The notes beneath the pieces are model-generated. The model ran no database searches, was not told the origin of the DNA, and saw only the letters and a list, made by a program, of their open reading frames with translations. From Candidatus Sulfomarinibacteraceae bacterium (GTDB lineage: Bacteria; Acidobacteriota; Thermoanaerobaculia; Thermoanaerobaculales; Sulfomarinibacteraceae): a DNA stretch of 64,000 nucleotides. Location: contig CAVTEP010000004.1 of NCBI GenBank assembly GCA_963733915.1, positions 112,758-176,757 on the forward strand, in the 5' to 3' direction. Position 1 is the first letter of the stretch. Each line of letters opens with the position of its first letter. Position numbers and translations under genes: made by a program. Below are positions 26,183 to 45,550 of the stretch, in pieces.

Positions 26183-26212
26183 AAAAAACCCCTCCGTGGG
26201 GGAGGGGTTTTT
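26183..26212. terminator. Bidirectional intrinsic terminator (AAAAAACCCCTCC-GTGGG-GGAGGGGTTTTT)
   Basis: 7-bp GC stem flanked by an A-tract and a T-tract, between convergent genes ending at 26145 and 26231. Confidence 0.8.
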
Positions 26213-26230
26213 GTTGATTTGTCTGTGTGT

Positions 26231-26569
26231 TTACCAGCCGCTGTCGTAACCGCCGCGATCACCGCCGCCGCCGCGACCACCGCCGCCTCCACGACCGCCA
26301 CGACCGCCGCCGCCGGAACGCTCGCGAGCCTGGGCGACATCCACGCGAATGGTGCGGCCGTCGAGCTCGGTGCCGTTCATCGCCGCGACTGCCTTGTCGG
26401 CCGCGTCGTCATCATTGAAGGTGACAAAGCCGAAGCCGCGGGAGCGGCCCGAGTCACGATCAGAGATCACGATCGCCTCGGTGATCTCTCCGTAGGGACT
26501 GAATGCGGCGTGGAGGCCGTCATTGTTCGTGTCCCAACTCAAACTTCCGACAAACAACTTCTTCGACAT
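26231..26569 (-). CDS. Glycine/arginine-rich RRM (RNP-1) RNA-binding protein, copy 1
   Basis: RNP-2 LFVGSL and RNP-1 RGFGFVTF, with an RGG tail. ATG is the complement of 26567-26569. The remainder of track ORF 26231-27775 is a spurious extension. Confidence 0.9.
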   Translation of the reverse strand: MSKKLFVGSLSWDTNNDGLHAAFSPYGEITEAIVISDRDSGRSRGFGFVTFNDDDAADKAVAAMNGTELDGRTIRVDVAQARERSGGGGRGGRGGGGGRGGGGDRGGYDSGW

Positions 26570-26715
26570 ATCTCTTCTCATCTCCCTGGGCACTGCCATT
26601 TCCTGGCGCCCCCGTTTCGCACACCGTGGTGGAACCTGCTTCCACCCGAACAGAAGCCAGCCCCAATGGCCGGCAACGGAAATCCGAACATAGCAAACAT
26701 CCAGATGCAATTCAA
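26570..26715 (-). promoter_or_regulatory. Conserved leader + promoter (TTGAAT-17-TATGTT) of RRM copy 1
   Basis: -10 is the complement of 26687-26692 and -35 the complement of 26710-26715. The leader contains the two conserved hairpins shared by all five copies. Confidence 0.6.
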
Positions 26716-26767: not shown

Positions 26768-28729
26768 ATGACGAAGAACGACAAAGCCGCGACCGACTCT
26801 GAACGCTACCCGGGAGAGATCAAACTCGCCGAGTCGGCGTTTCACCTCCTGATGGAGCGAACCGCACGGGGCCGGATGCCCGGCGATGCGTTTCCAACCG
26901 GCGATGTCTACGACATCCTCGACACGGTGGGTGAGCTGCTTCACCTCGAGGCTCTCGAAGCAAAGGGTAAAAAGGTATCGAAGAAGAAGCTTGAGACGAT
27001 GGTTGATCGCCTGAGGTCCGCTCTCGAAGGCCTGGCGGCCTGGCCGGTGGGCTCCCGGGTTCTGGTCATCGCCCCGCTCGCCGAGGCCTTCGATAAAGCG
27101 GAACTCGACTGGGTTGTCGAGGAGCTCCTGGCGGCCCTGCCGGAGCCCGATGCCCTCAGCGCCAAAGAACGCAAAGCGACGGTCGACGCATACCGCCGCC
27201 TGGCGCCGGTCCGCACGCGACTGATGATCGAGATCGGCGTGTGGGACCCGAAGCTCGAGGGCCAGTTGCGCCTGCTTCGTGACCTGAGCGCCGACCAACC
27301 CGAGGACGACGATCTGCTCGAGATCCTCAAACGCGGCATCGTGCTCAACGCCCTCTCGGGACGTGAACACCTGCTGCTCGAGGAACGCCGCCGCCTCGCC
27401 GAAGCCGAGCCCCTGCCCGAGAAGATCGCCGAGGCTTTCGACCAGATCTCCGAAGAGCTGATTGGCATCGAGATCGCCCGCCTCGGCCTCCACCTCGTGC
27501 TGGCCGATGTCGTTGCGGCGGGCCTCGTCCCGAAAAAGGTTTCGGAACGACAAATCGTGGCCGGCGCGTATCTGGCGATGCTCCGCCGTGATGATCCGAG
27601 CCGGAAGCCGGATCTGCACAAGATCGCCGGTTGGGCAAAGATCAACCACCGCAAGCTCGACGTCTTTTCCGATGAGATGGCTGCCGTATTCAAGTGGAAA
27701 CCTCCCGGCCACGAAGGCTCGATTCAGGCCCGTGAAGAAAAACGGTGGCGGGTCGAATCGCTGACGCTCCAACACATGCCGGTGCGGTGGAGCCGGGGCG
27801 CCGATGCCGAGCGGCCTCCGTACTCGACGCGGGCGGCGCGCAAGCGGCTCAAAGAGCTTCGCGAGGTCGCGTGGATGATGATCGACTGGTTCGAGCCGGT
27901 GAGGTTCGTATCCGAGGCTTTTTCATACGGCGACGGCGCCCCCGATGAAATGGATCTCGAGATCGTGCGCGAGATCATCAATCTCTGGGAGGAACAGGCA
28001 CCGGTTCGTGGACTCGACGATCTCGACCAGAGTTACCTCGATGACGATTGGGTGGACGAGGAATGGGAGGACGACACCGAAGATTTCGGTGGCTCCCTGC
28101 CCACGATCGTCACCACCGACGGCGAGCCGTGGGTCTTCAGCACGACGACCTTCGACATCGCCAAGGGCGAGCGCAGCGAAGTCATCAAGTGTCTTGACTC
28201 GGTCGATGAGCTGAGCCGGGAGCAGGAGGCCGGCGGCGAGCGCTGGGTGTGGCTCGACCCGCGCACGGACGGCGATGTCGTCATCGCGAGCCTCACCCTC
28301 GAGGAGGACGTGCTCACCGTCGAGGCCCAGTCGGTCGCGAGATCGGCCAGGGTCAGCGCCCGGCTGGCGGATCTCATCGGCGACCGGATCATCTTGAAGG
28401 ACATCCACACCGAACAGCCGACGCCCGAGCTGATCGCGGATCGCGCCGCCGAACAGCTGGCAGTCGCCGACGGTCCGGGCATTCCGCGAGACGAGCAGAA
28501 ACGGATCGTGCTCGAGGTCATCGATCGACACTACCGCGCGTGGCCCGACCAGACCCTGCCGGCTCTGGGCGATATCACCCCCCGCGAAGCCGTCACCGAT
28601 CCGGTGCTTCGTGCCGAGGTGATCGCCATGCTCCTCGAGTTCGAGGAAAATACCCGCGCCGCCACCTGGCCGATGAACGAGTTCGACTTCGGCTTCCTGT
28701 GGAACGAGTTGGGTCTGAAGCGCGACTGA
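26768..28729 (+). CDS. Hypothetical protein, 653 aa, acidic, no recognised domain
   Basis: Long ORF with coding-like composition. The C-terminal LPALGDITPREAVTDPVLRAEVIAMLLEFE resembles a motif seen at the C-termini of various uncharacterised proteins (DUF2384-like). Confidence 0.7.
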   Translation: MTKNDKAATDSERYPGEIKLAESAFHLLMERTARGRMPGDAFPTGDVYDILDTVGELLHLEALEAKGKKVSKKKLETMVDRLRSALEGLAAWPVGSRVLVIAPLAEAFDKAELDWVVEELLAALPEPDALSAKERKATVDAYRRLAPVRTRLMIEIGVWDPKLEGQLRLLRDLSADQPEDDDLLEILKRGIVLNALSGREHLLLEERRRLAEAEPLPEKIAEAFDQISEELIGIEIARLGLHLVLADVVAAGLVPKKVSERQIVAGAYLAMLRRDDPSRKPDLHKIAGWAKINHRKLDVFSDEMAAVFKWKPPGHEGSIQAREEKRWRVESLTLQHMPVRWSRGADAERPPYSTRAARKRLKELREVAWMMIDWFEPVRFVSEAFSYGDGAPDEMDLEIVREIINLWEEQAPVRGLDDLDQSYLDDDWVDEEWEDDTEDFGGSLPTIVTTDGEPWVFSTTTFDIAKGERSEVIKCLDSVDELSREQEAGGERWVWLDPRTDGDVVIASLTLEEDVLTVEAQSVARSARVSARLADLIGDRIILKDIHTEQPTPELIADRAAEQLAVADGPGIPRDEQKRIVLEVIDRHYRAWPDQTLPALGDITPREAVTDPVLRAEVIAMLLEFEENTRAATWPMNEFDFGFLWNELGLKRD

Positions 28730-28753
28730 AAAACCCCTCCGCGGGGAGGGGTT
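28729..28753. terminator. Shared hairpin terminator AAAAACCCCTCCGCGGGGAGGGGTT
   Basis: Same sequence as at 33199, 38101 and 41506. The U-tract lies on the minus-strand transcript. Confidence 0.8.
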
Positions 28754-28775
28754 CGATAAATTGTCGAGTTACGGT

Positions 28776-29084
28776 TTACCAGCGGTCACCGGAGTCGCGA
28801 CGACCACCACGACCGCCGCCGCCGCCACCGGTACGTTGCTTGGCCTGGGCCACGTCTACCCGGATGGTGCGGCCGTCGAGCTCGGCCCCGTTGAGGGCTG
28901 CGATGGCCTTGTCGGCCGCGTCGTCATCCTCAAAGGTGACAAAGCCGAAACCCCGCGAGCGACCCGTGTCGCGGTCGCTGACCACAACGGCCTCGCTGAT
29001 CTCGCCGTGAACACCAAACGCGTTGCGCAGGCCTTCATCATTCGTGTCCCAGCTCAAACTTCCAACAAACAGTTTCTTCGCCAT
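28776..29084 (-). CDS. RRM RNA-binding protein, copy 2
   Basis: MAKKLFVGSLSWDTNDEGL ... RSRGFGFVTF ... GGGGGGRGG. ATG is the complement of 29082-29084. Confidence 0.9.
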   Translation of the reverse strand: MAKKLFVGSLSWDTNDEGLRNAFGVHGEISEAVVVSDRDTGRSRGFGFVTFEDDDAADKAIAALNGAELDGRTIRVDVAQAKQRTGGGGGGRGGRRDSGDRW

Positions 29085-29229
29085 TTCTCTTCTCATCTCC
29101 CTGGGCTTTGCCGCTTCACGGCGTGCCCGTTTCGCGATTATGGTGGACCCTGCGTCCACCCGTGCAGAAGCCAACCCCGGCGGCCGGCTACGGAGTCTGC
29201 AACATAGCATTCATCCTCATGTCAAGCAA
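29085..29229 (-). promoter_or_regulatory. Conserved leader + promoter of RRM copy 2
   Basis: -10 TATGTT is the complement of 29201-29206; -35 TTGCTT at 17 nt. Hairpins are conserved, with G-U-compatible substitutions. Confidence 0.55.
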
Positions 29230-33198: not shown

Positions 33199-33225
33199 TA
33201 AAAAACCCCTCCGCGGGGAGGGGTT
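33199..33225. terminator. Shared hairpin terminator AAAAACCCCTCCGCGGGGAGGGGTT
   Basis: Identical to the other cassette terminators. Confidence 0.8.
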
Positions 33226-33247
33226 CGGTTGATTGATGAGTTACGGA

Positions 33248-33553
33248 CTACCAGCGGTCGCTGTAACCGCCGCGGCCACCGCCGCCGCCGCCACCACCGG
33301 AACGCTGCTTCGCCTGGGCCACATCCACCCGGATGGTGCGACCGTCGAGCTCGGTACCGTTGAGGGCTGCAACGGCCTTGTCAGCCGCCTCGTCGTCCTC
33401 GAAGGTGACAAAGCCGAAACCACGCGAGCGACCCGTGTCGCGATCGCTGATCACAACGGCTTCGCTGACCTCGCCGTGGGCGCCGAACGCGCTGCGCAGG
33501 CCCTCGTCGTTCGTATCCCAGCTCAAACTACCAACAAACAGTTTCTTCGACAT
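33248..33553 (-). CDS. RRM RNA-binding protein, copy 3
   Basis: MSKKLFVGSLSWDTNDEGLRSAF ... RSRGFGFVTF. ATG is the complement of 33551-33553. Confidence 0.9.
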   Translation of the reverse strand: MSKKLFVGSLSWDTNDEGLRSAFGAHGEVSEAVVISDRDTGRSRGFGFVTFEDDEAADKAVAALNGTELDGRTIRVDVAQAKQRSGGGGGGGGRGGYSDRW

Positions 33554-33696
33554 ACTCTCTCTTTTCTCCCTGAGCGCTGCCTTCCGGTGCGCCCGATTCG
33601 CAAACCGTGGTGGACCCTGCGTCCACCCATACAGAAGCCGGCCCCGCTGGCCGGCAACAGACATCGCAACATAACAGATATCTTCTTCTATTTCAA
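33554..33696 (-). promoter_or_regulatory. Conserved leader + promoter (TTGAAA-17-TATGTT) of RRM copy 3
   Basis: -10 is the complement of 33668-33673; -35 is the complement of 33691-33696. Confidence 0.6.
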
Positions 33697-36048: not shown

Positions 36049-37710
36049 ATGGCCAAACCAGTCGTGATGACGATCGATGACGAGCCGCACGTGCTCAACG
36101 CCATCGCGCGCGATCTGCAGGCGCACTATCAGAAGGACTACCGGATCGTCAAAGCGAGCTCGGGCACCGAAGCCCTGGAGACGGTGCAGGAATTCAAGCG
36201 CCGCAACACGCCGCTCGCGCTCTTCCTGGTCGACCAGCGCATGCCGGTCATGAGCGGCGTCGAGTTTCTGGCGGAAGCCATCAAGCTCTATCCGGAATCG
36301 AAAAGGGTCCTGCTGACCGCCTACGCCGATACCGATGCGGCGATCGCGAGCATCAACGCCATCGATCTCGACTATTACCTGATGAAACCCTGGGACCCCC
36401 CCGAGGAGCGCCTCTATCCCGTGCTGGATGACCTGTTGAGCGACTGGCTGGCCAGCGTGCCGGTCCCCTATGACGGCATCCGGGTGGCCGGGACCTTGTG
36501 GTCGGCGGGCTCGCACAACGTCAAGGAGTTTCTCGCCCGCAGCCAGATACCGTACAAGTGGTTGGATATCGAAAAAGACTCAGAGGCGAGGGAGCTGGTC
36601 GAGACGAGCTCCGATGGGCGGCCCCGGCTGCCGACCGTGTTCTTTCCGGATGGCAGCACCCTGGTGGACCCGGACCTCCGCTCGCTGGCGGAGAAGGTGG
36701 GTTTGCAGGCTTCCGCACAACAGCCGTTTTATGATCTGATCATCATCGGCGCCGGTCCGGCAGGCTTGGGTGCCGCCGTCTACGGGGCGTCCGAAGGACT
36801 GCGGACGGTGGTGATCGAGAAGGAAGCGGCCGGAGGGCAGGCCGGGACCAGCGCTCGGATCGAGAACTATCTCGGCTTTCCGAAGGGTATCAGCGGGGCA
36901 GACCTCACGCGACGCGCGACCACCCAGGCCAAACGCCTCGGGTCCGAGATCCTGACCGCCCAGGAGGTCGCCGGGCTGCGGGTCGAAGACCCCTATCGGA
37001 TCGTGACCCTGGACGACGGCAGCGAGCTGAGCTGCCACGCGCTCCTGGTGGCGACCGGCGTCAAAGTCCGCGAGCTCGACGTGCCGGGCATCGAGCCCCT
37101 GGTCGGAGCCTCGGTGTACTACGGAGCCGCGACCTCCGAAGCGGTTCACTATCAGGGCGGAAAGGTCTTTGTGATCGGCGGCGCCAACTCGGCCGGCCAG
37201 GGTGCGATGTTCCTCTCTCGGTTCGCGAGCGAGGTCACCATCCTGATCCGCGGGGACTCGTTGAAGACGAGCATGTCCCGGTATCTGATCGATCAGATCG
37301 AAGGGACGAAAAACATCTCGCTCAGGGTGAACACCGAGGTGACCGCCGTGGCCGGCAGCGACCATCTCGAGACAATAACGGTGAAGAACAACACAACCGG
37401 CGAGACCGAGACCACGCCGGCTGACGCGATCTTCATCTTCATCGGCGCGGTGCCCCACTCCGACATCGTGGCAGGCATCGTCGAGCGATCCGACGCGGGC
37501 TTCATTCTCACCGGACCGGATCTGATGCGCGATGGGCGCCGTCCGAAGAACTGGAAACTGCAGCGCGACCCGTTCCTGATGGAGACCAGCGTGCCCGGCA
37601 TTTTTGCGGCCGGCGACGTGCGCCACGGCGTCATCCGGCGGGTCGCCTCGGCGGTCGGCCAGGGTGCCATCGCGGTCAGCCTCGTGCACAAGTATCTCGA
37701 GACCGTGTGA
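36049..37710 (+). CDS. Fused response regulator / thioredoxin-disulfide-reductase-like FAD oxidoreductase
   Basis: ATG 36049 after AAGGAG (track start 36022 overlaps the HK stop). Receiver domain, then GAGPAGLGAAVYGASEGL and GGANSAGQGA dinucleotide-binding motifs. Confidence 0.85.
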   Translation: MAKPVVMTIDDEPHVLNAIARDLQAHYQKDYRIVKASSGTEALETVQEFKRRNTPLALFLVDQRMPVMSGVEFLAEAIKLYPESKRVLLTAYADTDAAIASINAIDLDYYLMKPWDPPEERLYPVLDDLLSDWLASVPVPYDGIRVAGTLWSAGSHNVKEFLARSQIPYKWLDIEKDSEARELVETSSDGRPRLPTVFFPDGSTLVDPDLRSLAEKVGLQASAQQPFYDLIIIGAGPAGLGAAVYGASEGLRTVVIEKEAAGGQAGTSARIENYLGFPKGISGADLTRRATTQAKRLGSEILTAQEVAGLRVEDPYRIVTLDDGSELSCHALLVATGVKVRELDVPGIEPLVGASVYYGAATSEAVHYQGGKVFVIGGANSAGQGAMFLSRFASEVTILIRGDSLKTSMSRYLIDQIEGTKNISLRVNTEVTAVAGSDHLETITVKNNTTGETETTPADAIFIFIGAVPHSDIVAGIVERSDAGFILTGPDLMRDGRRPKNWKLQRDPFLMETSVPGIFAAGDVRHGVIRRVASAVGQGAIAVSLVHKYLETV

Positions 37711-37772
37711 CAACGAAGCGTGCGCGGGTGGGCGGATTTCCTAAGACCCTTCGCATTTCGGGAGATACCCTC

Positions 37773-38028
37773 GTGCAGAAGAAACTGACCATCACGATTG
37801 ACGAAGAGGTCTACAAGGGATTGCATGCCGTTATCAGTCGAGGGCGATTCAGCCGTTTTCTCGAAAAACCTGGCACGGCCACACGTCGTTTCGCCCGATT
37901 TCGAAGCCGCCTACCATGAGGCGACCGGCGATGAGGTCAGGGAAGCGGAGGCCAGGAGTGGGCCGAGGGCGTAATCGGAGATATCGCCGATAACCCGAGC
38001 TGAGGTGTGGTGGGTGAGTTTTGATCCT
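37773..38028 (+). pseudogene. Decayed copy of the antitoxin/MazF module found intact at 40903-41452
   Basis: Nucleotide-level alignment to 40903-41155: A5 instead of A4 at ~37865 and a 1-nt deletion at ~37952 break the antitoxin frame. The toxin ATG is lost (GATAAC vs GATGAC), and the toxin is truncated after EVWWVSFDP, replaced by a repeat element. Confidence 0.75.
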
Positions 38029-38100
38029 CCTTCTCGCTCGCTCAAGATGACGGTACGGGGAAGCCGCTTCCCCGGTTTGGCAGCCTGGCGGGCACATCAC

Positions 38101-38127
38101 TAAAAAACCCCTCCGCGGGGAGGGGTT
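38101..38127. terminator. Shared hairpin terminator AAAAACCCCTCCGCGGGGAGGGGTT
   Basis: Identical to the other cassette terminators. Confidence 0.8.
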
Positions 38128-38149
38128 CAATTGATGAATGAGTGACGGT

Positions 38150-38443
38150 CTACCAGCGGTCGCTGTAGCCGCCGCGGCCACCGCCATTCGAACGCTGCTT
38201 GGCCTGGGCGACGTCCACCTTGATGGTGCGGCCGTCGGGCTCGGCCCCGTTGAGCGCCGCAACGGCCTTGTCGGCCGCCTCGTCATCCTCAAAGGTGACA
38301 AAGCCGAATCCATGCGAACGACCCGTGTCGCGATCGCTGATCACGATGGCTTCGCTGATCTGGCCATGGGTAGTGAAGACGCTGCGCAGGCCCTCGTCGT
38401 TCGTATCCCAGCTCAAACTTCCAACAAACAATTTCTTCGAAAC
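38150..38443 (-). CDS. RRM RNA-binding protein, copy 4 (canonical start lost; possibly decaying)
   Basis: The homologous ATG position reads GTT (complement of 38441-38443). The only in-frame starts are TTG/GTG at 38521/38518, inside the conserved leader. RNP-1 is altered (RSHGFGFV), and there is an L-to-P change (AEPDG). Confidence 0.6.
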   Translation of the reverse strand, partial: VSKKLFVGSLSWDTNDEGLRSVFTTHGQISEAIVISDRDTGRSHGFGFVTFEDDEAADKAVAALNGAEPDGRTIKVDVAQAKQRSNGGGRGGYSDRW

Positions 38444-38588
38444 GACTCTCTTTTTCTCCCTGAGCGCTACCTTTCTGGGCGCGCCATTTTCGCAAACCGC
38501 GGTGAACCCTGCGTTCACCAAAACAGAAGCCGGCCCCGTTGGCCGGCAACAGACATCGCAACAAAACAGATATGTTCTTCCAATTCAA
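38444..38588 (-). promoter_or_regulatory. Conserved leader + weakened promoter (TTGAAT-17-TTTGTT) of RRM copy 4
   Basis: -10 is the complement of 38560-38565 and carries a T-for-A change at the conserved second position. Confidence 0.5.
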
Positions 38589-38740
38589 TCATTTTCTCTT
38601 GAAGTTTTCGATCGCACGGCAATCCCTCCTTCCGAGCGCGGGTAGAAACGACCCTTCTTCGTCCTCCAAAAGGACTTCGCGCAACGTCCCGCCGTCGCTT
38701 TGGGGAGGCCGCAGAAAGGCGCCAGGGGCTGATGCGGGCG

Positions 38741-38769
38741 TTGAAATCTGGTATAACCGGAGTTATACT
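38741..38769 (+). promoter_or_regulatory. Promoter TTGAAA-17-TATACT ending 6 nt before GTG 38776 (leaderless architecture)
   Basis: Hexamers and spacing read directly; no SD before the start codon. Confidence 0.5.
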
Positions 38770-38775
38770 CCAGTC

Positions 38776-39012
38776 GTGAAAACCGCGATCTCGATTCCGG
38801 ACGAAGTCTTCGATGCGGCCGAGGACATGGCCAGACGCCTCGGTATGAGCCGCAGCCAGTTTTACGCGACCGCGGTCCGCGACTACCTCGAGGCGCATCG
38901 CAGCCGCGGCGTAACGGCTCGCCTCGATCAGATTTACGAGAACGCCGATTCTCGTCTCGACCTCCGCGTTGCCGAGGCGCAGACGGTTTCGCTCGGCGAA
39001 GACGAGTGGTGA
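38776..39012 (+). CDS. Type II antitoxin, ribbon-helix-helix (CopG/MazE-like)
   Basis: VKTAISIPDEVFDAAEDMARRLGMSRSQFYATAVRDYLE is a typical RHH. Its stop overlaps the MazF start. The upstream part of track ORF 38539-39012 is rejected. Confidence 0.7.
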   Translation: MKTAISIPDEVFDAAEDMARRLGMSRSQFYATAVRDYLEAHRSRGVTARLDQIYENADSRLDLRVAEAQTVSLGEDEW

Positions 39013-39350
39013 TGCAGCGCGGTGAGATCTGGTGGGCGACCCTCCCGGGCCCAACAGGCTCGGGGCCGGGGAAACGCCGCCCCGTCCTGATCGTCCAGTC
39101 CGATGCTTTTAACGCCAGCCGGCTGCAGACAGTGATCGCCGTTGTGATCACCTCAAACGTGGAGCTCGCGGCCGCACCCGGCAATATCCTCCTGCGGCGA
39201 CGCGACACCAAGCTGTCAAAAGACTCCGTGGCCAACGTCTCACAGCTGATCACCCTCGACCGGTCCTTCCTCAATGACCGGGTGGGGGAGCTCCCGAAGA
39301 GACTCAGCGGCGTGCTCGACGAAGGGCTCCGCCTGGTTCTCGGTTTGTAA
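39012..39350 (+). CDS. mazF: Type II toxin, MazF/PemK family
   Basis: RGEIWWATL ... RRPVLIVQSDAFN ... VVITSN. ATG 39012 sits in a TGATG overlap (track start is GTG 39006). Confidence 0.8.
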   Translation: MQRGEIWWATLPGPTGSGPGKRRPVLIVQSDAFNASRLQTVIAVVITSNVELAAAPGNILLRRRDTKLSKDSVANVSQLITLDRSFLNDRVGELPKRLSGVLDEGLRLVLGL

Positions 39351-40887: not shown

Positions 40888-40902
40888 GGTGGAGAAACTC
40901 CT

Positions 40903-41133
40903 ATGCAGAAAAAACTTACCATCACGATTGATGAAGAGGTCTACAAGGGATTGCATGCCGTCGTCGGTCGAGGGCGGATCAGCCGCTTTCTCGAAAACCT
41001 GGCGAGGCCACACGTCGTTTCGCCTGATCTCGAAGCCGCGTACCACGAAATGGCCGGTCACGAGGTGCGCGAGGCTGAGGCCGAGGAGTGGGCCGAAGGC
41101 GTGATCGGAGATATCGCTGATGACACGCGGTGA
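40903..41133 (+). CDS. Type II antitoxin (RHH-type; [33 protein letters not shown]...)
   Basis: Small protein with an acidic C-terminus. Overlaps the downstream MazF by 14 nt. Confidence 0.7.
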
Positions 41134-41452
41134 GGTGTGGTGGGTGAGCTTTGATCCTTCGATCGGCGGTGAAATCAAGAAAACCCGACCGGCGGTCATC
41201 GTCAGCAACGACGCCTCGAACCGTCACCTCAACCGGGTACAGGTCGTTCCCCTGACGTCGAATGTGGATCGAGTGTTCCCGAGCGAGGCTCTTGTCCGGC
41301 TGGATGGCGAGACACGAAAAGCCATGGCCGATCAAATCGCCACAGTCAGCAAGCGCCGTTTGGTAAACCTCGCGGGACGTCTCTCGGGAGATGACATGCA
41401 GGCCGTCGAGCACGCGATTGGCATCCAGCTTCAGTTGGTTTCCGTGGCTTGA
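41120..41452 (+). CDS. mazF: Type II toxin, MazF/PemK family
   Basis: [30 protein letters not shown] ... VVPLTSN. Confidence 0.85.
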
Positions 41453-41505
41453 CCGAGGCCCTGAGTCAGCCTCCTGCTCAAGGGCAGGCCGAAATCTCGG
41501 GCACC

Positions 41506-41531
41506 AAAAAACCCCTCCGCGGGGAGGGGTT
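41506..41531. terminator. Shared hairpin terminator AAAAACCCCTCCGCGGGGAGGGGTT
   Basis: Identical to the other cassette terminators. Confidence 0.8.
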
Positions 41532-41553
41532 CGGTTGATTGATGAGTTACGGA

Positions 41554-41856
41554 TTACCAGCGGTCGCTGTAGCCGCCGCGGCCACCGCCGCCACCGCCAT
41601 TCGAACGCTGCTTGGCCTGGGCGACGTCCACCTTGATGGTGCGGCCGTCGAGATCGGTCCCGTTGAGCGCCGCAACGGCCTTGTCGGCCGCCTCGTCATC
41701 CTCGAAGGTGACAAAGCCGAATCCGCGCGAACGACCCGTGTCGCGATCGCTGATCACGATGGCTTCGCTGATCTGGCCATGGGTACTGAAGGCGCTGCGC
41801 AGGCCCTCGTCGTTCGTATCCCAGCTCAAACTTCCAACAAACAATTTCTTCGACAT
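41554..41856 (-). CDS. RRM RNA-binding protein, copy 5
   Basis: 100 aa with RNP-2 LFVGSL, RNP-1 RGFGFVTF and a GGGGGGRGG tail. Matches the track ORF exactly. Confidence 0.92.
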   Translation of the reverse strand: MSKKLFVGSLSWDTNDEGLRSAFSTHGQISEAIVISDRDTGRSRGFGFVTFEDDEAADKAVAALNGTDLDGRTIKVDVAQAKQRSNGGGGGGRGGYSDRW

Positions 41857-41999
41857 GACTCTCTTTTTCTCCCTGAGCGCCGCCTTCCGGCGCGCCCGTT
41901 TCGCAAACCGCGGTGAACCCTGCGTTCACCAAAACAGAAGCCGGCCCCGTTGGCCGGCAACAGACAACGTAAGATAGCAGATATCTTCTTTAATATCAA
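41857..41999 (-). promoter_or_regulatory. Conserved leader + promoter (TTGATA-17-TATCTT) of RRM copy 5
   Basis: -10 is the complement of 41971-41976 and -35 the complement of 41994-41999. Hairpins at 41912-41930 and 41940-41958. Confidence 0.6.
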
Positions 42000-42011
42000 A
42001 TATTTTCTTTT

Positions 42012-42107: not shown

Positions 42108-42229
42108 GGCTCGGTCGTGTTGTGATGCGGGATTCCCGCCCGCACATCTTTCGTCCGCCCGACGACGAGCCCGGACCGATGGCCGTGTCGCGCAGCTGCC
42201 CGCCATCGCGCCGCACGAAGGCTCCGAGC

Positions 42230-43149: not shown

Positions 43150-43238
43150 TTTTTGTGGTGCGGGCGTCTCGCCCGCACAATGCCTCGCAGTAGCGTCGAA
43201 TCCTGAGGTTGTGCGGCCGGGACGGCCGCACCACAACG
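43150..43238. repeat. REP-like hairpin pair (TTGTGGTGCGGGCG-TCT-CGCCCGCAC ... GTGCGGCCG-GGA-CGGCCGCACCACAA)
   Basis: Read directly. Confidence 0.8.
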
Positions 43239-43807: not shown

Positions 43808-43865
43808 TCCTCAGATCCGTTCTGCCCCCGCCCAGAGTCCTCGTCGCTACCGGCTCCGCTCTCGG

Positions 43866-44028
43866 GTCCGCCCGGACGGCCGCACCACAAGAGCGACACC
43901 TGGGCCGGATTGTGGTGCGGGCGTCCCGCCCGCACATCTGGAATTGTCTGGCAACCGTGCGGCCGGGACGGCCGCACCACAAAAGCGACACCTGGGCCGG
44001 ATTGTGGTGCGGGCGTCCCGCCCGCACT
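43866..44028. repeat. Array of four REP-like hairpins arranged as two ~75-bp composite units
   Basis: The unit CGGCCGCACCACAA(A/G)AGCGACACCTGGGCCGGATTGTGGTGCGGGCGTCCCGCCCGCAC is repeated twice. Confidence 0.85.
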
Positions 44029-44173
44029 CTCCCTCGGCTCTCCACCCCGGAGCGCGGCGAACCTTCCCAAGTTCGTTGTCGAAAAATGAGATGAACGCGA
44101 TTTTTCAGTGGACGTTTTCGCGCTGAAGCACCACATTCCTCGCTGAGGAAGAAGTGTATAAAAAGAGGAACAC

Positions 44174-45550
44174 ATGAAATATTCAGATCTGGCGCTGGCC
44201 TGTGGCCTGACTCTCACCCTTGTGGCGCTGCCCGGCTCTCCGGTTCGGGCGGAGACCTATTACGTCGACGACGACAGCTGCCCCGGGCCAGGGGCCGGAA
44301 CGCCGGGCGATCCGTTCTGCAGCATCCAGTCGGGCATCGATGCGGCGTCCGCTGGAGACACGGTCCAGGTGGCCACCGGCACCTACCTCGAGAACATCAC
44401 GATGAAGAGCGGTGTCGTGATTCAGGGGGCGGGGCAGGGTGTCACCACCATCGACGGCGGCGGCAGCGGCTCCGTGGTGACCGCCAACGGCGTCGATTCC
44501 GCCGCGATGCTCGACGGGTTCACGATCACCAACGGTGACGCCGACGACGGCGGCGGGATGTACAACAACGGCTCGTCACCGACGGTGAGCAACTGCACCT
44601 TTTCCGGGAACACTGCCTTTTTTATGATCAATTTCGGGAGAGGCGGCGGGATGTTCAACCAGTCTTCCTCTCCGACGGTGACCAACTGCACCTTTTCCGC
44701 CAACGATGCCGAGGAACGCGGCGGCGGAATGTACAACGTGAACTCCTCACCGACGGTGAGAAACTGCACCTTTTCCGGGAACACCGCCCATCGGGGCGGT
44801 GGAATGTACAACGAGTCCTCGTCGCCGACGGTGACACGGTGCAGCTTCAACGGCAACTCTTCCACATTGAACCTGGGCGGCGGGATGGCCAACGATGGCT
44901 CCTCCCCGACGGTGAGCAGGTGCTCCTTCTTCGACAACGACGCTTACAACTACGGTGGCGGGATGGCCAACTTCAGCGGATCATCTCCGACTGTGGCCAG
45001 CTGCATCTTCTCCAAGAACCACACCGTTTTATACCCCGGCGGTGACGACATATCCAACCAGGGCTCGGGTTCATTGCCCACTGTGATCAACTGCACCTTC
45101 TATACCGAGGCCCTTCTCGGGTACATGATGTTCAACGAAAACTCCTCTCCGACGGTGACAAACTGCATATTCTGGGGATTTGGTGACCCCATCTGGAACA
45201 GCGGTACCTCAGCACCGACGGTGACCTTCAGCGTCGTGCCGTACAGCGGAACCGGCAACATCTGGGAAGACCCGACGTTCGTGGACTCGGTGAACGGAGA
45301 CTTTCATCTCCTGCCGTCTTCACCGTGCATCGATGCCGGGGACAACTCGCCTCCGGCCCTGCCCACCACCGACATCGATGGCGATAACCGCAGGATCGAC
45401 GATCCTGAGGTCGTCGACACCGGCTACGGGACGCCGCCGATCGTCGACATAGGGGCTGACGAGTTTAATCCGCCGACACCCATCTTTTCCGACGGCTTCG
45501 AGTCCGGCGACTGTACAGCCTGGTCGAACACGGTTGGCGAGGTGACCTGA
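44174..45550 (+). CDS. Secreted right-handed parallel beta-helix repeat protein
   Basis: Signal peptide. About 9 repeats of the GGGMxNxxSSPTVxNCTFSGN pattern, and a C-terminal DIDGDNR / IGADEF motif typical of this class. Confidence 0.8.
   Translation: MKYSDLALACGLTLTLVALPGSPVRAETYYVDDDSCPGPGAGTPGDPFCSIQSGIDAASAGDTVQVATGTYLENITMKSGVVIQGAGQGVTTIDGGGSGSVVTANGVDSAAMLDGFTITNGDADDGGGMYNNGSSPTVSNCTFSGNTAFFMINFGRGGGMFNQSSSPTVTNCTFSANDAEERGGGMYNVNSSPTVRNCTFSGNTAHRGGGMYNESSSPTVTRCSFNGNSSTLNLGGGMANDGSSPTVSRCSFFDNDAYNYGGGMANFSGSSPTVASCIFSKNHTVLYPGGDDISNQGSGSLPTVINCTFYTEALLGYMMFNENSSPTVTNCIFWGFGDPIWNSGTSAPTVTFSVVPYSGTGNIWEDPTFVDSVNGDFHLLPSSPCIDAGDNSPPALPTTDIDGDNRRIDDPEVVDTGYGTPPIVDIGADEFNPPTPIFSDGFESGDCTAWSNTVGEVT

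Follow-up and report, generated by a model that had tools for sequence, protein, structure and literature searches.

Bacterial proteins with an RNA recognition motif (RRM), such as RbpA, RbpB, and RbpC of Bacteroides and the cyanobacterial Rbp proteins, are gaining recognition as RNA chaperones and global regulators where Hfq or a rich Csp repertoire is lacking. Which RNAs they specifically target, and how they are themselves regulated, is poorly defined. Here, we describe a structured messenger RNA (mRNA) leader that precedes each of five small RRM genes in a 64,000-nucleotide (nt) stretch of DNA from a Candidatus Sulfomarinibacteraceae bacterium (assembly GCA_963733915.1, contig CAVTEP010000004.1, positions 112,758 to 176,757), hereafter the window. 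The leader of the fifth copy, at positions 41857-41964 on the minus strand, serves as our reference. The closest described element is Chlorobi-RRM (RF01697; Weinberg et al. 2010, PMC2864571). Its published alignment shows two hairpins and a conserved UUCUCUUU tail; UCAG-CCAAYGGUUGG-CUGA forms the apex of the first hairpin, and internal loops interrupt the second, which is long (PMC2864571). Autoregulation was proposed for it by Weinberg et al. on the same logic that we follow below, and that proposal was never tested (PMC2864571 supplement).

Experimental precedent comes from Bacteroides thetaiotaomicron, in which rbpA, rbpB, and rbpC carry 5′ untranslated regions (UTRs) of 122-155 nt. Their products are under negative control by themselves and by one another, partly transcriptional and partly post-transcriptional and dependent on the 5′ UTR, and are needed for cold adaptation (PMC13370968). 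The rbpB mRNA has an RbpB site detected by crosslinking and immunoprecipitation (CLIP), and RbpB favours single-stranded regions near ribosome-binding sites (PMC11697453). Among other RNA chaperone genes, the Escherichia coli cspA 5′ UTR combines autoregulation with temperature control of translation and stability (summarised in PMC13370968).

The leader found here is a new and probably cis-regulatory RNA motif that is well supported and not in Rfam, with three hairpins that are kept by selection on the mRNA strand, and in the DNA searched it occurs only in front of RRM genes. Neither the window nor 20 related loci gave a match at gathering score in Rfam 15, and the leaders of copy 5 and of the related loci L034 and L069 matched no relevant family at E <= 10, RF01697 included. 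No riboswitch or cspA-type family in Rfam matched the leader either. Literature searches returned no described RRM-associated motif in Acidobacteria or Planctomycetes, and the later motif surveys from the Breaker laboratory make no mention of RRM-associated motifs. A preliminary description of this DNA had been unable to assign the leader to a named motif, in agreement with these scans, and had correctly named Chlorobi-RRM among analogous cases.

The leader is ~105-110 nt long and contains three hairpins, in the mRNA order B, A, and C (coordinates in this paragraph are those of the reference copy, on the minus strand). Hairpin B (P1), the 5′-most, lies at 41940-41958 and reads GCCGGCC-AACGG-GGCCGGC, with a stem of 7 base pairs (bp) and a 5-nt loop of consensus RNYGK. 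Its two apical C-G pairs are invariant (79/79). The CU-rich single strand UUCUGUUUU (linker 1, 41931-41939), in which UCUG is nearly invariant within the close group, separates it from hairpin A (P2, 41912-41930), which also has a 7-bp stem and a 5-nt loop (GGUGAAC-GCAGG-GUUCACC). Linker 2 (41898-41911) is a 14-nt, U/G-rich, partly conserved single strand, GCGGUUUGCGAAAC, with the consensus RCGRUKUGCGAGAC; we looked for conserved pairing of this linker in the homologue alignments and found none. Hairpin C (P3, 41875-41897) has a bulged stem and a variable loop (GGGCGCGCC-GGAA-GGCGGCGCUC). It is followed by the ribosome-binding region (41857-41873), where the Shine-Dalgarno (SD) sequence GGGAG (41873-41869) and a purine-rich spacer, AAAAAGAGAGUC (41868-41857), place the SD 12 nt from the AUG, a spacing taken straight from the sequence. 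Nearly every homologue has GGGAG or CGGAG as its SD. Insertions and deletions in the hairpin C loop do not come in multiples of three, and therefore the leader is not coding. For the same reason, and because the frame is not kept in the other copies, we rejected an upstream open reading frame (ORF) or N-terminal extension, which in copy 4 would start from TTG, as an accident.

Homologues were collected by two routes. A protein-based scan of one genome per species identified 78 loci with close relatives of the RRM protein, the majority belonging to the Acidobacteriota groups Thermoanaerobaculia/Sulfomarinibacteraceae and Holophagae. A first covariance model, built from the five window copies, gave 83 matches, and a second was built from the best 65 of these. 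The second model found 81 leaders in 434 kb of genome loci, all on the gene strand and each ending at the start codon of an RRM gene, along with one weak spurious match (E = 0.009). Where homologous loci contain tandem RRM genes, each gene has its own leader. The other route was gene-independent, as metagenome contigs were scanned with a DNA pattern covering only hairpin B and the first linker bases (GCCGGCCNNNGGGGCYGGCWTCTG). This gave 133 matches on 120 contigs, of which 118 have an RRM signature downstream at a fixed distance, the KLFVG motif beginning 112-115 nt past the start of hairpin B in 107 of the 118. One further match lies at a contig end, and the remaining 14 were discarded as chance, lying in unrelated coding regions or terminators without the promoter and without hairpins A and C. 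When the covariance model was run on 100 of these contigs (451 kb), 104 of its 106 matches directly preceded an RRM ORF, one was cut by a contig end, and one was a weak chance hit (24 bits). In total, related bacteria yielded ~180 leaders (81 from genome loci and ~105 from metagenomes), and no full-length leader stood before any other kind of gene in the ~885 kb of genome loci and metagenome contigs searched.

Some leaders depart from the usual length. At loci L019 (2291-2503), L092, L158, and L030, they are ~90 nt longer (a ~212-nt model match), with an insertion in or near hairpin C. Within the window, the apex pattern GGCCRNYGKGGYC has a fourth exact match in the coding sequence (CDS) of copy 2 (28980-28992, minus), with 0.43 expected window-wide; this match is probably a coincidence of EAVVV codons.

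Across an alignment of the 81 genome leaders, standard base pairs occupy 88.4% of cells compared to 36-54% in slid controls. Both sides have changed in 29 of 31 pairs (10-17 in the controls), and the cells changed on both sides number 276 (40-101 in the controls). None of 500 shuffles attained any of the observed pairing measures. Hairpin B is paired in 96.6% of cells, with double changes in five of its seven pairs; hairpin A in 94.6%, with double changes in all seven pairs; and hairpin C in 90.7% for its lower helix (6/6 pairs) and 85.5% for its upper helix (3/3 pairs). In hairpin A, for example, UA (32 leaders) exchanges with CG (26) and AU (51) with GC (24). The metagenome leaders, which were chosen by hairpin B alone, are paired in 97.1% of cells in hairpin A and 92.6% in hairpin C, and these two hairpins, which played no role in selection of the sequences, likewise covary. 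Moreover, free folding with RNAalifold of a structure-blind MAFFT alignment of 49 diverse leaders returned 7 pairs of hairpin B and 6 of hairpin A, along with the base of hairpin C; compensation was seen in 12 of 16 pairs. By Fitch parsimony on a neighbour-joining tree of the adjacent CDSs, at least ~98 switches between Watson-Crick pair types, an approximate number, took place in 23 hairpin pairs. The pair changes are many independent events rather than one inherited change.

The strand under selection can also be read from these data. The three hairpins contain 134 G-U cells compared to 39 A-C cells, and pairing falls by 4-6 points if the alignment is read on the opposite strand. This excess of G-U over A-C therefore identifies the mRNA strand as the one under selection, as the preliminary description had argued from the copies in the window. 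Its broader claim, that RNA structure is selected in the RRM mRNA leader, extends to many homologues outside this genome, with covarying pairs present in the larger alignment and the hairpins recovered by MAFFT. Its count of covarying hairpins was too low: A and B covary as it had stated, and a third covarying hairpin, C, had been missed.

Within the window, the five RRM genes all lie on the minus strand, which is the mRNA strand, and encode proteins of 97-112 amino acids with a single RRM_1 domain (Pfam E = 4.6e-24) and a glycine-rich tail. Copy 5 (41554-41856) encodes 100 amino acids with this same architecture, and the other CDSs are at 26231-26569 (copy 1), 28776-29084 (copy 2), 33248-33553 (copy 3), and 38150-38443 (copy 4, with GTT where ATG is expected). 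The covariance model matched exactly five times in the window (26567-26690, 29082-29204, 33551-33671, 38441-38563, and 41854-41974, the last containing the copy 5 leader at 140.6 bits), and every match terminates at the start codon of an RRM_1 gene. These matches coincide with the five minus-strand leaders that the preliminary description had listed, and its hairpin A and B sequences were correct on re-reading. The leader of copy 1 is at 26570-26680, with hairpins B, A, and C at 26656-26674, 26628-26646, and 26588-26613; that of copy 2 at 29085-29195, with hairpins at 29170-29188, 29142-29160, and 29103-29128; that of copy 3 at 33554-33662, with hairpins at 33637-33655, 33609-33627, and 33572-33594; and that of copy 4 at 38444-38555, with hairpins at 38529-38547, 38501-38519, and 38462-38486.

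Compensatory change is already visible among these copies. In hairpin A, copies 4 and 5 have GGUGAA-CGCAGGG-UUCACC, copies 2 and 3 have GGUGGA-CGCAGGG-UCCACC, and copy 1 has GGUGGAA-GCAGG-UUCCACC, so that two pairs show double changes, including the A-U to G-C exchange noted in the preliminary description. Hairpin B has one G-U pair in copy 1 and two in copy 2 on the mRNA strand, which appear as A-C mismatches on the plus strand. When 290 nt upstream of the five genes are aligned, similarity begins ~150 nt before the ATG and runs unbroken to it, with none farther out. The leaders are 67-90% identical among the copies, compared to 23-41% for the region 160-400 nt upstream of the start codon, and all five are conserved. 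Between copy 1 and the others, which are the oldest pairs, leader identity (0.73-0.78) exceeds that of synonymous third positions (0.59-0.70), whereas between copy 2 and copies 3-5 the leader (0.67-0.69) is not better conserved than synonymous sites (0.75-0.78). The evidence from the window for selection beyond paralogue similarity is suggestive only, and the decisive evidence comes from other genomes.

All five copies share one layout, with a conserved promoter, a ~110-nt leader, the CDS, and a terminator. A 3′ UTR of ~25 nt and a terminator, CCCCUCCCCGCGGAGGGG-U6, are conserved in the five units (26183-26233, 28728-28778, 33200-33250, 38102-38152, and 41506-41556, minus), and the intrinsic terminator of copy 5 (41506-41529, minus) reads CCCCUCC-CCGC-GGAGGGG followed by U6. 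With its own promoter, leader, CDS, and conserved 3′ UTR and terminator, each RRM gene is therefore a complete monocistronic transcription unit.

The copy 5 promoter (41971-41999, minus), of the sigma-70 type, consists of a -35 element, TTGATA (41999-41994), a 17-nt spacer, and an extended -10 element, TG-C-TATCTT (hexamer 41976-41971); a scan found this one promoter-like site compared to 0.2 expected. Of the 79 genome leaders, 54 share this -35/TGn/-10 arrangement, as do 98 of the 102 metagenome leaders (152/181 together), and in most of these the -10 hexamer ends 12 nt ahead of hairpin B. The distant members L042, L034, L063, and L070 have a different and equally well placed promoter, TTGACA-17-TGGTATATT. 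From these positions, we infer a transcription start site (TSS) 6-8 nt past the -10 hexamer, which would put the mRNA 5′ end 4-6 nt before hairpin B; for copy 5, the predicted leader end is good to ~2 nt. The preliminary description had noted that a start downstream of the hairpins would count against its reading. The predicted promoter, through which alone the 5′ end was addressed, ends 12 nt before hairpin B and not downstream of the hairpins. The promoter spacer is also conserved across genomes (AAAGAAGATATCTGCTATGTT), which is unusual for a promoter spacer; it includes a palindrome, AGATATCT, and a direct repeat, ATATYTG, is found at -35 and -10 (window 41971-42010 and the equivalents in copies 1-4). 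This could be the operator of a DNA-binding regulator, which would fit the transcriptional part of the rbp feedback reported in Bacteroides.

Strong matches to the leader came from metagenome-assembled genomes (MAGs) labelled Thermoanaerobaculia, Sulfomarinibacteraceae, Acidobacteriota, and Holophagae. A few carried other labels (Myxococcales, Chondromyces, Methylomirabilota, and Cryobacterium), perhaps through errors of binning. In most of the 78 loci, four Planctomycetia contigs of up to 2.6 Mb among them, the hairpin B apex, GRCC-RNYG-KGGYY, precedes the ATG by 96-113 nt. The Planctomycetia leaders match the model weakly (E about 1e-5 to 1e-4) and fold into a 5′ hairpin and two more hairpins. 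In Myxococcota, Bradymonadales, Oligoflexales, and other groups, the leaders of RRM genes are long and G+C-rich and lack the apex of hairpin B.

Because the association with RRM genes is exclusive and the Bacteroides experiments provide a precedent, we propose that the leader is a cis-acting operator through which the pool of RRM paralogues exerts negative auto- and cross-regulation, a reading to which we assign a probability of about 0.5-0.55. When the protein pool is high, RRM proteins would bind the leader. Candidate sites are the hairpin B apex, which is conserved, and the unpaired linkers, CU-rich or U/G-rich. Binding would lower the expression of all paralogues. Translation initiation would be affected, either because the ribosome-binding region is occluded or because it pairs more readily with the CU-rich linker, and through the 5′-terminal hairpin B the stability and half-life of the mRNA could change as well. 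Weak pairing between the linker and the ribosome-binding site (RBS) could further lend the switch a dependence on temperature, like that of RNA chaperone genes induced by cold; this is compatible with feedback. The ~180 natural variants are a ready-made mutational series for studies of binding and feedback. The host clade comprises uncultured, sediment-dwelling Thermoanaerobaculia and Sulfomarinibacteraceae, in which regulatory RNAs are essentially uncharted, and the leader would add a family to Rfam and aid the annotation of RRM gene arrays in MAGs.

The pairing of linker and RBS named in this proposal corresponds to a long-range helix, P0. RNAalifold on the five copies pairs UUCUGUUUU with AAAAGAGAG, that is, the CU-rich linker with the purine-rich spacer between SD and AUG. 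If formed, P0 would close a three-way junction and bury the ribosome-binding region, and it was retained in the covariance model. It is 75-85% paired on the fitted alignments, and an alignment-free duplex test gave a weak signal, with -4.93 kcal/mol for native linker/RBS combinations and -4.56 kcal/mol for swapped ones (p = 0.007). The helix has many A-U and G-U pairs and little stability (-3 to -10 kcal/mol), and it is convincing in some divergent members (CUCG:CGAG variants, CCUAU:AUAGG at L053, and CUGCGGG:UCCUGUAG at L069). Because a pyrimidine tract opposite a purine tract pairs in many registers, we report conserved complementarity of linker 1 with the purine-rich RBS region in several registers, not an established helix; from these sequences, an actual helix is plausible. 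A pseudoknot between the hairpin A loop (CGCA) and linker 2 (UGCG) suits copies 1-5 but was lost in many homologues, and it was rejected.

Several points weigh against the proposed feedback and its parts. The regulatory role is drawn from association and analogy. On an unbiased alignment, helix P0 is 66% paired, compared to 55-61% for slid partners, while alternative anti-SD registers (UUCUGU:ACGGAG and UUCUG:CAGGG) reach 69-74% without covariation, and no register between linker and RBS shows clear covariation in that alignment. The pairing is absent altogether in a subgroup with the linker CAGCGAUCC. As to the hairpins, covariation counts taken from model-fitted alignments lean towards the model, and the CDS tree behind the event counts is rough, which is why their number is approximate. 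Single-sequence folding energies are ordinary (z about -1.2; minimum free energy z -1.2 to -2.0), and this measure is uninformative in this G+C-rich RNA.

The weakness of the linker-RBS helix and its A-U and G-U content are of the kind that responds to temperature, and they would also suit a protein-independent RNA thermosensor of the cspA type, in which temperature-dependent folds expose or hide the RBS and make the RRM genes cold-inducible without protein feedback. Cold induction of cyanobacterial rbp genes through the 5′ UTR was reportedly found by Sato and Nakamura in 1998. The Bacteroides RRM proteins are cold-adaptive, and a thermosensor has been raised as an idea for their 5′ UTRs (PMC13370968). 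Still, we consider this explanation unlikely: no alternative conserved fold was detected in the leader, the linker-RBS pairing lacks covariation, no cspA-type family matched, and the invariance of the hairpin B apex points to a factor that recognises it rather than to simple melting. A thermosensor would be compatible with autoregulation, and the two are not mutually exclusive. We regard as slightly less probable again a constitutive element, in which hairpin B shields the mRNA from 5′-end-dependent decay and the other hairpins keep the RBS unpaired, giving high and stable expression with no switch. Stem-loops at the 5′ terminus are established mRNA stabilisers, as in the ompA 5′ UTR. The distance of ~4-6 nt between the predicted TSS and hairpin B in divergent lineages and the unpaired SD of the consensus structure agree with such a role, but a stabiliser needs the stem alone, and conservation here extends to the RNYGK loop, both apical C-G pairs, and the sequences of the linkers. 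Moreover, the element is restricted to one gene family and is not used by other highly expressed genes.

The remaining explanations fare worse. Hairpin B with a U-rich tract could act as an intrinsic terminator, a transcription attenuator that stops most transcripts ~30 nt after the start unless overridden. In copy 5, GCCGGCCAACGGGGCCGGC followed by UUCUGUUUUG scores as terminator-like in a consensus scan, and copy 4 has the same hairpin and a U-rich tail. However, the U tract is poor in copies 1-3 (UUCUGUUCG, UUCUGCACG, and UUCUGUAUG) and absent in distant members (AGCGAUCC and CUCCGUGUC), no conserved competing antiterminator was seen, and hairpin B lies too near the TSS for an upstream sensor. 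We rejected attenuation, which appears very improbable, on the grounds that the U tract is not conserved. A riboswitch, with the three stems as an aptamer for a small molecule, is harder still to credit. The leader does have multiple conserved stems and some conserved unpaired nucleotides, but the junction nucleotides are moderately conserved only, the three-way junction hangs on an unproven helix, Rfam gave no match, and an exclusive tie to an RNA-binding-protein gene offers no metabolic logic. Finally, the similarity might have no function and simply be what recent duplication, or gene conversion between paralogues, has left behind. In its favour, all five genes are paralogous, a recent segmental duplication holds copies 4 and 5, and for some pairs, as given above for copy 2, the leader is no better conserved than synonymous sites. 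Against this, flanking DNA is unalignable, and compensatory conservation spans dozens of genomes, two Acidobacteriota classes, and many metagenomes. This cross-genome covariation refutes the idea, to which we give almost no credence.

The DNA around the leaders has features of its own. Copy 4 (38150-38443, minus) has GTT in place of ATG (38441-38443), a change of the conserved RNP1 arginine to histidine, and a leucine-to-proline change. Compared to copy 5, its synonymous third positions are 99% identical, with at least seven nonsynonymous differences and a leader diverged by 10%. From these differences, it looks like a recent pseudogene. The segmental duplication (37761-38600 and 40891-42011) takes in the RRM gene, its leader, and a ribbon-helix-helix (RHH) antitoxin-like ORF (37707-37919 and 40903-41133). 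Beside copy 5 lies a MazF/PemK-like toxin ORF (41120-41452), most of which has been lost from the copy 4 segment by a deletion of ~280 bp, and a second pair of RHH and PemK-like genes is found at 38539-39350. Repeats resembling repetitive extragenic palindromic (REP) elements, which are G+C-rich and palindromic, form two families, TTGTGGTGCGGGCGTCCCGCCCGCAC and GTGCGGCCGGGACGGCCGCACCACAA (42110-42154, 43153-43187, 43900-43944, and 43992-44036; 43211-43236, 43865-43890, and 43957-43982), with one repeat just upstream of the copy 5 promoter. Farther along, positions 44529-44944 hold five tandem copies of a 75-93-nt coding repeat (family D2), 62-82% identical to the reference copy, that probably belong to a repeat-domain protein.

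Compared to known systems, the leader is most like Chlorobi-RRM, likewise a structured and conserved RNA that consistently occupies the 5′ UTR of genes for single-domain RRM proteins. By eye, the apex of the first Chlorobi-RRM hairpin resembles the hairpin B apex GGCC-ARYGK-GGCC, for example at L034 (2384-2410; GAUUGGCCAAUGUGGUUGAUC and GGCCAAUGUGGUU) and at L042, and its CU-rich tail, UUCUCUUU, resembles linker 1, UUCUGUUUU (PMC2864571 supplementary file 92). In contrast, the RF01697 model does not match, there are three simple hairpins here and two there, and Chlorobi-RRM belongs to Chlorobi whereas this leader belongs to Acidobacteriota and Planctomycetota. The leader is not a member of the Chlorobi-RRM family. 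The likeness in sequence suggests, as a lead only, a protein-recognition element shared across phyla. In its boldest form, hairpin B would be a phylum-spanning operator for bacterial single-domain RRM proteins, with its apex common to Acidobacteriota and Planctomycetota and present in altered form in Chlorobi-RRM, which we offer as a tentative and rather doubtful possibility. On that reading, hairpin B would be the first defined natural high-affinity RNA target of this protein family, and the several RRM genes would make up a homeostatic circuit, cross-regulated and responsive to cold, in analogy to the Csp family.

The rbpA, rbpB, and rbpC genes of Bacteroides are similar in being a multi-copy family of small RRM_1 proteins with long 5′ UTRs (122-155 nt there, ~110 nt here), but no conserved secondary-structure motif has been described in those UTRs, and their regulation is partly transcriptional. 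The E. coli cspA 5′ UTR, with its cold box and thermosensor, is likewise long and structured, and its gene encodes a small, abundant RNA chaperone of a multi-copy family, although the protein fold is unrelated (a cold-shock domain there and an RRM here) and there is no match in sequence or structure. In the proposed feedback, as in ribosomal-protein autoregulatory leaders and the U1A and AtGRP7 loops, an RNA-binding protein would repress its own mRNA through a structured site. U1A binds a hairpin or internal loop through its RRM, and AtGRP7 binds a U/C-rich, UUCUGG-type site. All of these differ from our case in both proteins and RNAs, and the two eukaryotic loops, of U1A and AtGRP7, act on polyadenylation or splicing rather than on translation initiation. 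The motif is therefore best placed beside these systems as a new member of a kind already known, the leader of a gene for an RNA-binding protein, with a mechanism that is not categorically new.

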